From UHGV virus genome UHGV-0141872: 12,686 nucleotides of DNA. The stretch is one strand, 5' to 3'. This document shows, piece by piece, positions 4,866 to 12,686 of the stretch. Origin of the DNA: a virus. Both the position numbers and the translations under genes were made by a program. The notes below the pieces were generated by a model, which was not told where the DNA came from, made no database searches, and saw only the letters and a program-made list of their open reading frames with translations. Within the stretch, counting starts at the first letter, position 1; each line of letters starts with the position of its first letter.

Positions 4866-4908
4866 ACTTTTTCTCCTGTAAATTAAAAAAGGCCACCAGC
4901 GGCCCCCC

Positions 4909-4957
4909 AAAAAAAACACCACACCAAAGACATCCGCAGATGCCTTTGTGTGGTGTT
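4909..4957 (-). terminator. Strong rho-independent terminator about 45 nt upstream of the holin start
   Basis: Minus strand reads AACACCACACAAAGG-catctgcggatg-TCTTTGGTGTGGTGTT followed by TTTTTTTT (about 14-bp stem with one bulge, U8 tract). A weaker GGCC...GGCC hairpin plus T-run follows at 4885-4904. Confidence 0.6.
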
Positions 4958-4994
4958 ATTCAGTTTTGATATGTATGGGACGTGGAGCGAATAC

Positions 4995-5049
4995 AAAAAA
5001 GGCCTGCCGGAGCAGACCTCAAAAAAAAGCCAGCACTGGGGGGGCTGGC
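4995..5049 (-). terminator. Tandem pair of rho-independent terminator hairpins
   Basis: Minus strand: GCCAGC-cccccagt-GCTGGC + TTTTTTTT (5021-5049), then GGUCUGC-uccg-GCAGGCC + TTTTTTGT (4995-5018). Confidence 0.5.
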
Positions 5050-5665
5050 AGGAAAGCAAACGTGCTTATCGGATTTTCAAAAAAAGAATATTACCTTTGC
5101 GTTAATCATCCTGGCCTTCCGAAGCACATTTCTCAACTGAAAACGGGTATTTTCAGATTTCGTTATCTGTCATATTGACAGGCCCCACTTCTCCGGGGTA
5201 GTGAAGTAAGTGGCGTTTGCTTCCTGTAAATGCCCGAGAGTTATCCATGATCTCTTGTATTAGGCATTCCTCAGTGGACTAATTTCGGAGTTATCATCCT
5301 GTTCAATTTCATCCAGGATCCCCTACTTAATAAGTTCATCATTCTTCAGGTGGCAGTTTCTTTCAGCCAGCCGTGCAAGCAACAGCACATTCTTGTCGGG
5401 CTCAGAATAACTCCTGCAAATGCAACAATGATGACCGTAGCACCAATAACCTTGAGCTGCCCGCATCCGTAAAAAGCGAAGGCCCCAAATTACCAGAATA
5501 AAACTGAGCAGATATCCGACCTTCGTTACCGCATGGACTTCATTGTCTCATACACCAGGAGCAGCAAATTGCAAAGGATGAAGCACGCCCCATGAAGATT
5601 CTCCCAAAACTATAATTGTAAAAACCAAAGTAGAGGAAGCGAACACTTGCAAACCCGAACGTTGA

Positions 5666-5693
5666 ATAAAAAAAACCGCCTGGAGCGGCGGTT
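5666..5693 (-). terminator. Rho-independent terminator downstream of the tRNA pair
   Basis: Minus strand: AACCGCC-gctcca-GGCGGTT followed by TTTTTTTTATT. Confidence 0.5.
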
Positions 5694-6046
5694 AATGGCA
5701 TATAAAAACGCATGATTTAATTGTATTCAGAAGTGTCGGGTACCTCCCGAAGCATCCAGCCCCACATGGATACTGTGGTTTCCCGCTAAACCGACTCTTT
5801 AAACCACCCTCGCACTGAGGAACACCTCTGTAGTGTTTTTACAACACCGGGATAGTGCATCATCAGCCCTGCCAGGAAATACTAAATCTCCACCGATAAT
5901 GCACTATTCCATTGTTGTAAAAAATCAGCACTGAGGCTATAACCGACCTCAAACAATAGCCTGAGGACCAAAGATGTCTTAAAACAACCTGCCCCCACGT
6001 AAAAAAACACGCCAGTGCTGTATAATTCGTGTTGCCAGAATAATGA

Positions 6047-6121
<75 letters not shown>

Positions 6122-6124
6122 ATA

Positions 6125-6200
<76 letters not shown>

Positions 6201-8896: not shown

Positions 8897-8926
8897 GATT
8901 ATCAATATTTTCAATTCACCTGGCAA
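8897..8926 (-). promoter_or_regulatory. Candidate sigma70 promoter upstream of the CPBP gene (moron promoter, or the phage late promoter PR')
   Basis: Minus strand: TTGCCA (-35), 17-nt spacer, GATAAT (-10), about 30 nt upstream of the CPBP start and about 100 nt downstream of the Q stop. AT-rich context, so chance matches are possible. Confidence 0.35.
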
Positions 8927-9019: not shown

Positions 9020-9394
9020 CTACCGCATATCCATATCTAGCCGGACATTCAGAGCCATAAGCATTCCTTCAATAATACCTTCCGCTTTATAAAGTCTTTT
9101 ACCAATAAGACCATCAGAACATCTATGCTTACGTGCAAGAGCCATAAATGTCATTCCACCTACGTAATAATCCACCAACAAATCGTGCAAATACTGATTA
9201 TTCTTGTTTAATCGTGCCATACAGCCACAAATTATCATGGCATCATCATCAGAACACTGAGGACGTGATTTCACTTTAGTCGGGATTAATCCTTTAAAAC
9301 CAGCAGCTATCGAGGGCCATGTTACATCCTCATGATTATTTGCTGCCCATGCTCCCCACCGCTCCATAACCAGCTGAATATCACGCAACATCAT
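9020..9394 (-). CDS. Late-gene antitermination protein Q (phage 82 / QuuD-type), 124 aa
   Basis: [62 protein letters not shown]... closely matches my recollection of E. coli DLP12 QuuD / phage 82 Q. ATG-ATG start preceded by AAGAGGATG. Confidence 0.8.
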
Positions 9395-9476
9395 TACATC
9401 CTCTTATTACGAATATATTCACACCCAGTCGCCCACCGCAAATAGGCAGACCACGCACAATATTGATTCCATCAAA

Positions 9477-9752
9477 CTACTCGTCGTCTATGAGTAGTCC
9501 GGCATGCGTCAGCGCATCCAGTGGCGCTTTCAACAGGTTGTCCAGGTCACGACGGCGCTTATCCGGTGGCTCCACAATAATCCTGATCGCCAGCTTTTCG
9601 GACAGGTTTAATTTCAGTCGCTGCTGGCTAACAACTAGCGCTACATCACGGCAATAACGCTTTCCTGCTTCCGAGATGAAATACGTATTGCCATGACGTC
9701 GCCAGTAGGTATTCACCGTCGGCGGGTAAGGCAAAACAAACTCTATACGCAT
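9477..9752 (-). CDS. rusA: RusA-like Holliday junction resolvase, truncated at 91 aa by an in-frame TAG; the frame continues to 9381 encoding the expected RusA C-terminus
   Basis: RRRDLDNL and LIDD motifs (RusA catalytic Asp cluster). The TAG at 9479..9477 falls where E. coli RusA has Gln (CAG); downstream in-frame FDGINIVRGLPICGGRLGVNI aligns with RusA [21 protein letters not shown]. ATG at 9752 preceded by AAAGAGGTTACTG. Confidence 0.7.
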   Translation of the reverse strand: MRIEFVLPYPPTVNTYWRRHGNTYFISEAGKRYCRDVALVVSQQRLKLNLSEKLAIRIIVEPPDKRRRDLDNLLKAPLDALTHAGLLIDDE

Positions 9753-9764
9753 CAGTAACCTCTT

Positions 9765-10814
9765 TTACCCAAGCACGCCGGTTGCAAAGGCGTGATCAAG
9801 AAAACCAAAAATTAAATCAACCTGGGAACCATGCTTTTCTTCGAACGCCTGCGGATCTGCATGAAGTTCGTTGTGATGTTCCCGACACAGCGGCAACGTA
9901 AAAATATCGTGGGCTTTTGTCCCCATCCCGCCCTGACCGTGACCAATCAGGTGATGGGGATCGTCTGCTGGCTTACCACAACACGTACACGGCTGTGTCT
10001 TCACCCAGCGCGTATATTTCTCATTTACCCAACGGCGACGTTTAGGCCGCCTCATGAAAGATTCCGGTGACTCCGGATCAACGGTGATGCTGACCACCGT
10101 CTTTTCCTGTAGTGGGTTTTGTTGCTGGTGGGCGTGATATGGCTGCACAAGATTTTTTGTGCGCTGCTTCAGTACGCTGGTGGCTGTCTGCTCTCCCGGT
10201 ATGATTTCGCTTTCGCGGTACACCGAGCGGATTTTTTCCGCACGCAATCCCAGAGAACGACGTAATACTGCCTCCGGAAGCGCGTCCGCCACTTGATTGC
10301 AGACCGCCCACCAAGATAATTCAGCTAGCGATAACTCTCGCTCCTGTGTGCCATTCATTGCATGACGGATGACGTCAATCATCCATGCTGACAAGTTTTG
10401 GTGAGCTAGTAGCCCGAGTGATTCGGAGGTCTGGTCACGCAACTGGTTGTCGCAGTGCCAGCACAACACCATCGCGCCAGAGTCATAACGGTGAATGACG
10501 GTTTCACTGTGGTGATAATCGCCGTGTGGCCACTGGCAGGATTTAACATGGCGCAGTAACCAGTGAGACAATGCGCCAGCGCCACCAGCAGCACGAATCA
10601 CTCGTTCGTCGCTGAAAAATGACAGTAATGATTTATCCTCCGCCAGCGGCTGGCGAACGGCAGGGACGACTCCGGACGGCAGACCGAGCATGCTTTTCGG
10701 TTCCGGCTCCACCAGCACTCGAGGATTGTGAAATACCTTCATGGATTCACGACCTGGCTTAAGGACCACCAGCCCGAGTTCCGGTACCAGAACAGGTCGA
10801 AGTAATACCCGCAC
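9765..10814 (-). CDS. DUF968-like lambdoid nin-region protein (YdfU-like) with C-terminal HNH-like Cys/His motif, 349 aa
   Basis: C-terminal CTCCGKPADDPHHLIGHG...LCREHHNELH zinc-finger/HNH-like pattern. Size and position (just upstream of rusA and Q) match my recollection of E. coli Qin YdfU. GTG start at 10814 preceded by GGAGGTAAC; an internal ATG (MKVFHN...) is an alternative. Confidence 0.5.
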   Translation of the reverse strand: MRVLLRPVLVPELGLVVLKPGRESMKVFHNPRVLVEPEPKSMLGLPSGVVPAVRQPLAEDKSLLSFFSDERVIRAAGGAGALSHWLLRHVKSCQWPHGDYHHSETVIHRYDSGAMVLCWHCDNQLRDQTSESLGLLAHQNLSAWMIDVIRHAMNGTQERELSLAELSWWAVCNQVADALPEAVLRRSLGLRAEKIRSVYRESEIIPGEQTATSVLKQRTKNLVQPYHAHQQQNPLQEKTVVSITVDPESPESFMRRPKRRRWVNEKYTRWVKTQPCTCCGKPADDPHHLIGHGQGGMGTKAHDIFTLPLCREHHNELHADPQAFEEKHGSQVDLIFGFLDHAFATGVLG

Positions 10815-11160: not shown

Positions 11161-11412
11161 TTATTCTTCTGCAAAAGCTGAAAAGCCTGCTTTTATTCCG
11201 ATCTCTTTCAGTGCCTGTAATGAAGTGACAAACTCACCTTCGCGCAAGATAAATCCGTCCGTCACTCGACCATCCACAAAATTAATTAACGCAGCCCCAT
11301 TCTTTCGCAAACACATAATGCGGTAATGACTAACAAGATTTCCATTTTCAACACACACAGCATAGAGGCCATCTTCACAAAAAATTTTACGCAGTTCTTC
11401 GATGTTCATCAT
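11161..11412 (-). CDS. Small hypothetical protein, 83 aa; resembles my recollection of E. coli Qin protein Rem
   Basis: MMNIEELRKIFCEDGLYAVCVENGNLVSHYRIMCLRKNGAALINFVDGRVTDGFILREGEFVTSLQALKEIGIKAGFSAFAEE. ATG at 11412 preceded by GGAAGGATTCTG. The Rem assignment is from memory and unverified, so no symbol is given. Confidence 0.5.
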   Translation of the reverse strand: MMNIEELRKIFCEDGLYAVCVENGNLVSHYRIMCLRKNGAALINFVDGRVTDGFILREGEFVTSLQALKEIGIKAGFSAFAEE

Positions 11413-11628: not shown

Positions 11629-11784
11629 TTACTCCTCAGGTTCGTAAGCTGTGAAGACAGCGACCTCCGTCTGGCCGGTTCAGATTCGTACCTCGCAGAG
11701 GTCTTTCCTCGTTACCAGTGCCGTCACTATGACGGTTAAACAGATGACGATCAGGGCGATTAACATCGCCTTTTGCTGCTTCAT
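11629..11784 (-). pseudogene. hokD: hok-family type I toxin gene (HokD/RelF-like) interrupted by an in-frame TGA at codon 35
   Basis: Translation MKQQKAMLIALIVICLTVIVTALVTRKDLCEVRI*TGQTEVAVFTAYEPEE matches my recollection of E. coli HokD (51 aa) except that the Arg codon is TGA (11682..11680). SD AAGGAG lies 9 nt upstream of ATG at 11784. Confidence 0.6.
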
Positions 11785-11900
11785 AGCCTGCTTCTCCTTG
11801 CCTTTCGGCACGTAAGAGGCTAACCTACATGTGTCTAGCATGAAATTGGCCTCAGATTAATGTTAAGCGTCTTGCAGGACGCGTAATGTTAACTGGGGCT
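11785..11900. promoter_or_regulatory. hok mRNA leader / mok-overlap region; expected location of the antisense Sok RNA and its promoter (plus strand)
   Basis: Inferred from the canonical hok/sok architecture (antisense RNA complementary to the leader of the toxin mRNA). An in-frame upstream ATG (MLDTCRLASYVPKGKEKQA...) is present in the leader. Exact Sok boundaries cannot be set from sequence alone. Confidence 0.3.
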
Positions 11901-11995
11901 TTTCTCTATCTGCCGTTGGTGTTCATGCCCGAGGCAGATAGCCTCAAGCACCCGCAGCCATTCTACTTAACTACCGCTACCTCGCCAATATGAAA

Positions 11996-12646: not shown

Positions 12647-12680
12647 CTGTCTCTTATACACATCTCCGAGCCCACGAGAC
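12647..12680 (+). other. Illumina Nextera (Tn5 mosaic end) adapter, a sequencing/assembly artifact at the contig end
   Basis: Exact match to CTGTCTCTTATACACATCTCCGAGCCCACGAGAC, followed by 6 nt that would be the start of an index. Confidence 0.95.
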
Positions 12681-12686
12681 GCTCAT

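Follow-up and report, generated by a model that had tools for sequence, protein, structure and literature searches.

Is a prophage gene that carries an amber codon, with its reading frame still open behind it, broken, conditional or simply misread? The stretch of viral DNA analysed here (12,686 nt, in the following the window) raises this question for a gene encoding a RusA-type Holliday-junction resolvase. The initial annotation, made from the letters alone, placed three options side by side, namely a recent nonsense mutation, a sequencing error or a gene whose full-length product needs amber suppression. As a whole, the observations are best explained by a recent nonsense mutation in a prophage rusA gene, which arose once, was inherited and is tolerated, and we consider this explanation highly probable.

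Layout of the rusA-Q locus

The locus follows a lambdoid arrangement with the gene order DUF968, rusA and Q, in which rusA is the last gene of the nin region (Table 1); nin genes are known to lie close together, with stop codons that overlap the next start codon (PMC8022706). Translation of 9752..9381 on the minus strand reaches the TAG after the residues HAGLLIDDE, continues in the same frame for 31 further codons and ends at a TGA lying within a 14-nt overlap with Q; the coordinates and the codon count of the initial annotation are correct. Q starts with the ATG at 9394, which is followed by another one at 9391.

The 31 orphaned codons are 100% identical to residues 93–123 of an intact allele (P0002, see below) and align with the C-terminus of E. 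coli K-12 RusA, including the GGRL motif noticed initially; the open frame is therefore not due to chance. A role of the remnant as a separate protein of 31 aa was dismissed, as it features no Pfam hit, no start codon and no Shine-Dalgarno sequence.

Table 1. Features of the window mentioned in the text, with positions counted from its first letter.
Feature	Position	Strand	Description
Truncated rusA ORF	9477..9752	-	91 codons + TAG; N-terminal three quarters of the RusA Holliday-junction resolvase
Amber codon TAG in place of CAG (Gln92)	9477..9479	-	Alignments to relatives and intact-allele loci L014–L017
Mutated base	9479		T on minus strand, A on plus strand; ancestral C/G
Orphaned C-terminal rusA remnant	9384..9476	-	31 codons; would form β-strands 3 and 4 of the core sheet
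Ancestral rusA stop TGA	9381..9383	-	Inside the Q start; intact relatives end rusA there
Shine-Dalgarno-like AAGAGGA	9399..9405	-	4 nt 5' of the first Q ATG; read from the sequence
Late-gene antiterminator Q, intact	9020..9394	-	124 aa from first ATG; Pfam PF06530, 172 bits
DUF968 gene, intact	9765..10814	-	349 aa, directly 5' of rusA in the nin-like region; Pfam PF06147, 256 bits; same as L014
Sigma-70-like promoter	8898..8926	-	TTGCCA, 17-nt spacer, GATAAT; 10/12 matches
tRNA genes Thr(UGU) and Gly(UCC)	6047..6200	-	Between DNA methyltransferase and lysis genes
Stretch from tRNAs to holin	4866..6046		About 1.2 kb, no convincing ORF
Rem-family gene	11161..11412		Next after hok/sok
hok/sok type I toxin-antitoxin module	11680..11953	-	Hok/Gef ORF at 11680..11841
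sok antisense RNA	11779..11953		Rfam RF01794, 115 bits
Contig end containing the Illumina Nextera read-2 adapter	12647..12686		Adapter GTCTCGTGGGCTCGGAGATGTGTATAAGAGACAG on minus strand

Identity of the gene as rusA

The gene is a member of the RusA family by descent, with an incomplete product. In the search with the Pfam RusA family (PF05866, cut-off 22.8 bits), the truncated ORF scored 46.3 bits and the read-through sequence 52.1 bits, and the latter also matched the RusA structures 1Q8R and 2H8C (phmmer to PDB 1Q8R, E = 3.6e-20). The Asp triad and the lysine are present and all located 5' of the stop (D69, D71, K75 and D90, corresponding to D70, D72, K76 and D91 of K-12 RusA); the roles of the catalytic residues D70, D72, K76 and D91 have been described (PMC1636454).

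The RusA protein of the E. coli K-12 prophage DLP12 (PDB 1Q8R, 2H8C, 2H8E) and Rus of phage 82 belong to the same family, and their genes likewise close the nin-like region immediately in front of Q. The sequence analysed here is 37% identical to K-12 RusA, with D70/D72/K76/D91 and GGRL aligned, but a stop replaces the codon that matches Q93, leaving 91 instead of 123 aa and a protein without the last two β-strands. The initial annotation had named a conserved glutamine at this position, and rightly so, since none of 23 homologues, with identities down to 48%, deviates from Gln92 (K-12 Q93), and the surrounding block DEQFD is invariant as well. RusA homologues comprise 119–126 aa with a conserved QFD...GGRL. 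Sequences matching rusA occur at up to six places per E. coli genome, and several copies are frequent.

Origin of the amber allele

A search with the reconstituted protein (Q at position 92) revealed the intact parent allele P0002 on six contigs, encoding 123 aa which are 100% identical to the read-through product apart from Q92. Its DNA differs from the rusA gene of the window at only one of 372 nt (nt 274, C versus T), and over the 1.8 kb spanning DUF968, rusA and Q the amber base represents the sole difference to the intact-allele phage, while 79 differences were counted over 11 kb, most of which cluster in the two mosaic blocks formed by orf92 and the large terminase gene. The E. coli strains C8, ST2350 and RM11911 and the intact-allele loci L014–L017 do not share the stop either, as all of them feature CAG. 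With CAG in the closest relatives, the change is a single C-to-T transition, as had been proposed from the comparison to E. coli RusA.

When strain C8 serves as outgroup for an aligned core of 4.5 kb, T proves to be derived, the TAG carriers form one clade, and the amber change is essentially the sole substitution on their stem. Furthermore, the diversity within this lineage is very low (0–4 SNPs per 4.5 kb). Among the three options considered initially, the intact allele differing at one base and the derived state of T thus support a recent nonsense mutation. We propose that one C-to-T transition turned the CAG of the invariant Gln92 into the amber codon TAG in a prophage rusA gene, and that this change occurred once and recently in a narrow E. 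coli prophage lineage, and has since been inherited by many isolates. The carrier lineage has diversified structurally, as lysis and morphogenesis genes are absent from the locus of GCA_966542435.1 (L006/L186) and the late region of a further carrier (L007) is recombinant, which indicates that the allele has been inherited for some time.

Two further suggestions on the history of the gene were rejected. The residues G95 and I105, which differ from C8, could have been regarded as drift following inactivation, but the intact P0002 features the same residues, and both consequently predate the stop. Likewise, a deamination hot-spot at a Dcm site (CCWGG) does not account for the mutation, as the context GAG-CAG-TTT contains no such site.

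Regarding its distribution, the amber allele is rare. With a degenerate pattern accepting either TAG or CAG, all 167 related matches listed (at least 120 IMG/VR contigs and 47 metagenome contigs) featured CAG, and an exact TAG-specific pattern gave no match in species-representative genomes or IMG/VR. The closest complete E. coli genomes (C8, ST2350 and RM11911) are 91.6–95.4% identical over the rusA-Q segment, and with 95.4% as the best match of this segment, no complete RefSeq E. coli genome carries the amber allele. In terms of contigs, the amber allele (at least 24, spread over 36 blocks of the assembly collection) outnumbers its intact parent (six), suggesting that the amber prophage belongs to an E. 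coli clone which is sampled frequently. No cost of the allele is visible in these counts, which could also result from hitch-hiking in a successful clone.

Amber suppression and read-through

The open frame downstream of the stop could also be taken as the hallmark of a conditional gene, whose full-length RusA is produced via amber suppression, e.g., by a glnV/supE-type tRNA, or via programmed or leaky read-through. A supE-type suppressor inserts glutamine, and wild-type RusA would hence be restored exactly. In line with this option, the downstream frame is fully intact up to the ancestral TGA. The lack of extra mutations in the 93-nt remnant would fit a frame that is still in use, but the low diversity of the lineage predicts it just as well, so that it has no discriminating power; recency accounts for the intact remnant. 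The stop is, moreover, not conserved, given CAG in the nearest relatives and in every one of the related matches listed above. The only tRNAs found in the window are tRNA-Gly(UCC) and tRNA-Thr(UGU), neither of them a suppressor, and within the same prophage Q and the methyltransferase gene ordinarily end with TAG, so that this codon is not avoided. The local RNA is also not unusually structured (118-nt fold, z = -1.42, with 22 of 200 shuffled sequences folding as well), and the stop tetranucleotide is TAGT, neither of them giving a positive signal for read-through; with a U after the stop, termination in E. coli is relatively efficient. A literature search on natural amber suppressors revealed nothing relevant. 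Suppression by a host suppressor tRNA is unlikely, and a conditional gene, be it by suppression or by read-through, appears very improbable; of the options in the initial annotation, amber suppression finds no support in the non-conserved stop, the ordinary prophage tRNAs and the normal use of TAG.

The allele resembles the laboratory amber mutants of lambdoid phages (lambda Sam7 and Pam80, with supE/supF hosts), which display the same CAG-to-TAG type of change and an intact frame downstream. As with these lambda ambers, a Gln-inserting suppressor would restore the wild-type protein. In contrast to them, however, the present allele was found in wild isolates and gut metagenomes, affects a non-essential gene and is not associated with a suppressor in the element.

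Consequences for the RusA protein

The full-length sequence was modelled with AlphaFold2 (pLDDT 81.6), and the predicted protein consists of strands at residues 2–7, 54–60, 93–100 and 109–115 and helices at 28–43 and 70–83. This prediction agrees with the published RusA architecture of a four-stranded sheet and two helices with a cation site formed by D70, D72 and D91 (PMC1636454). The stop at codon 92 cuts off exactly the last two of the four core strands in the model and leaves the sheet of the family incomplete, while both helices, the arginine-rich loop and the Asp triad remain in the 91-aa product. With half of the core sheet lost, the 91-aa product is very probably misfolded or unstable and inactive, even though all catalytic residues are kept.

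It is precisely these retained elements (helices α1 and α2, the arginine-rich loop and the Asp triad) which could argue for a function of the 91-aa protein in its own right, e.g., in poisoning the RusA dimers of co-resident prophages or in binding junctions without cutting them. The presence of several rusA copies in many E. coli genomes and the more frequent sampling of the amber allele compared to its parent would also fit such a role. However, half of the core sheet is absent, the allele does not extend beyond one near-clonal lineage, independent recurrence is not apparent, and there is no evidence of selection, which makes a function of this kind most improbable. The same grade applies to a combined reading, in which the gene is a natural conditional allele, either in a host with a Gln-inserting suppressor or by low read-through, or in which the 91-aa protein is a dominant-negative partner of a co-resident RusA; we regard this as highly improbable as well, albeit it would, if true, explain the sampling of the amber allele above its parent.

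Authenticity of the stop codon

The window is a SPAdes node (ENA contig ERZ652483 NODE_273) with a k-mer coverage of only 6.6, and its end still contains Nextera adapter sequence, so that from this contig alone an error in a low-coverage metagenome assembly, with C as the true base (CAG), would be conceivable. This does not hold for the allele as such. Within the assembly collection, 36 index blocks list a protein identical to the 91-aa product, which is present on at least 24 independently assembled contigs, among them contigs of five NCBI E. coli isolate assemblies (GCA_032526365.1, GCA_966542435.1, GCA_033742835.1, GCA_033746555.1 and GCA_030816245.1), several ENA metagenomes and Logan assemblies of SRA runs. 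Ten fetched carrier loci, assembled independently from isolates, metagenomes and SRA runs, are 99.8–100% identical to the window; the TAG is present in each of them, and only one singleton SNP was observed across their rusA and Q genes. Moreover, NCBI nr holds the 91-aa protein under several accessions, deposited from several E. coli genomes. The sequencing error considered in the initial annotation is thereby refuted, and we see next to no room for it.

A natural short isoform, with intact relatives normally ending RusA at the site of codon 92, is just as implausible, since the alignment to related rusA genes shows CAG at this site, the closest complete genomes annotate a RusA of 122–123 aa ending at the Q-overlapping TGA, homologues of 119–126 aa contain QFD...GGRL, and no point was found in favor of this option. 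Neither of the two observations named as refuting in the initial annotation, i.e., reads with CAG or related intact phages with the same end of the protein, was made. The amber mutation is thus real, derived, of single origin, confined to one lineage and the only change in the gene.

Expression of Q and tolerance of the loss

A polar effect of the premature stop on Q was also considered. In the predicted RNA fold, the Shine-Dalgarno-like AAGAGGA of Q remains unpaired, and the fold itself is not unusually stable; no terminator-like site or stable structure hiding this motif was found. The newly untranslated gap of 82 nt contains 26 G versus 9 C, i.e., the opposite of a Rho utilisation site. We therefore do not propose a polar effect on Q; with its own Shine-Dalgarno sequence, a G-rich and C-poor gap and no terminator, Q expression should survive, as far as the sequence allows a prediction.

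Q shows no coding difference from the intact-allele phage, and relative to this phage none of the other genes of the window is broken. In a carrier scaffold identical to the window (L185), the head and contractile-tail genes downstream are also intact. The nin region can be deleted in lambda without loss of plaque formation (PMC10695390, PMC8022706). As the genes of this region, including the junction resolvase, are dispensable for the growth of lambdoid phages and silent in the lysogen, the loss of rusA would be tolerated. The lesion is probably both isolated and tolerated.

Prophage context

The region at 10551–20597 of scaffold L185 comprises lambda-like packaging and head genes (GpA terminase, gpW, portal, S49 protease, decoration protein and E-type capsid) beside contractile-tail genes for sheath and tube. 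The prophage hence combines lambdoid early and head modules with a contractile tail of the myovirus type.

Sister prophages with an intact RusA of 125 aa also carry single-gene lesions, with the N6_N4 methyltransferase split in L187 and the large terminase split in L188. These independent lesions show that prophages of this group commonly suffer a scattered inactivation of single genes. The rusA allele likewise resembles the point-mutation pseudogenes of resident and cryptic E. coli prophages, with one nonsense change in an accessory gene and vertical inheritance. It differs from wholesale prophage decay in that the lesion is isolated, the rest of the prophage region examined in the window and in L185 being intact. 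The carrier locus of GCA_966542435.1 is a deletion derivative with a truncated holin, a lost endolysin, a split terminase and no head and tail genes. Its remnant ends near yciE-yciF-yciG-trpA-trpB-trpC, the usual end for such an early region being of the ydfJ-ydfK-pinQ type.

Several additional features of the window and its surroundings were noted. A sigma-70-like promoter is located approximately 95 nt 3' of the Q stop, where the Q-dependent late promoter (pR') is expected. The tRNA genes lie at the position where Shiga-toxin phages also carry tRNAs. The adjacent stretch between the tRNAs and the holin gene is unannotated in RefSeq relatives and corresponds to the slot for toxin cargo genes ("morons") in related phages, with Stx2e in some relatives; only 286 nt of it match a phage record, namely Escherichia phage SerU-LTIIb. 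On the other side of the locus, a hok/sok module is followed by a Rem-family gene (Table 1). In the carrier loci L004–L011, about 4.4–7.4 kb upstream of the window start, three metabolic-looking cargo genes are located between the replication genes and hok, encoding an AraC-type regulator with a DJ-1/PfpI domain, an MBL-fold hydrolase and an alpha/beta hydrolase. Finally, the last 40 bases of the window are unmatched in any sister locus and contain the adapter, which, left untrimmed at the contig end, results in a spurious start of the ORF of 96–99 aa called there.

Implications

The rusA allele described here is a case of ordinary decay of a dispensable nin-region gene, and nothing in it departs from known biology. 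The unlikely suppression or dominant-negative action would, if true, mean that a phage recombination gene is expressed conditionally in nature, for which examples are rare. For annotation, the truncated protein is already present in public databases under the name of a normal RusA; as several NCBI records name the 91-aa product a RusA family protein, the gene is better annotated as a pseudogene with an internal stop.

With the intact parent still circulating, the locus provides a documented and datable one-step inactivation of an accessory prophage gene, and the amber allele could be used to mark the lineage of this prophage.
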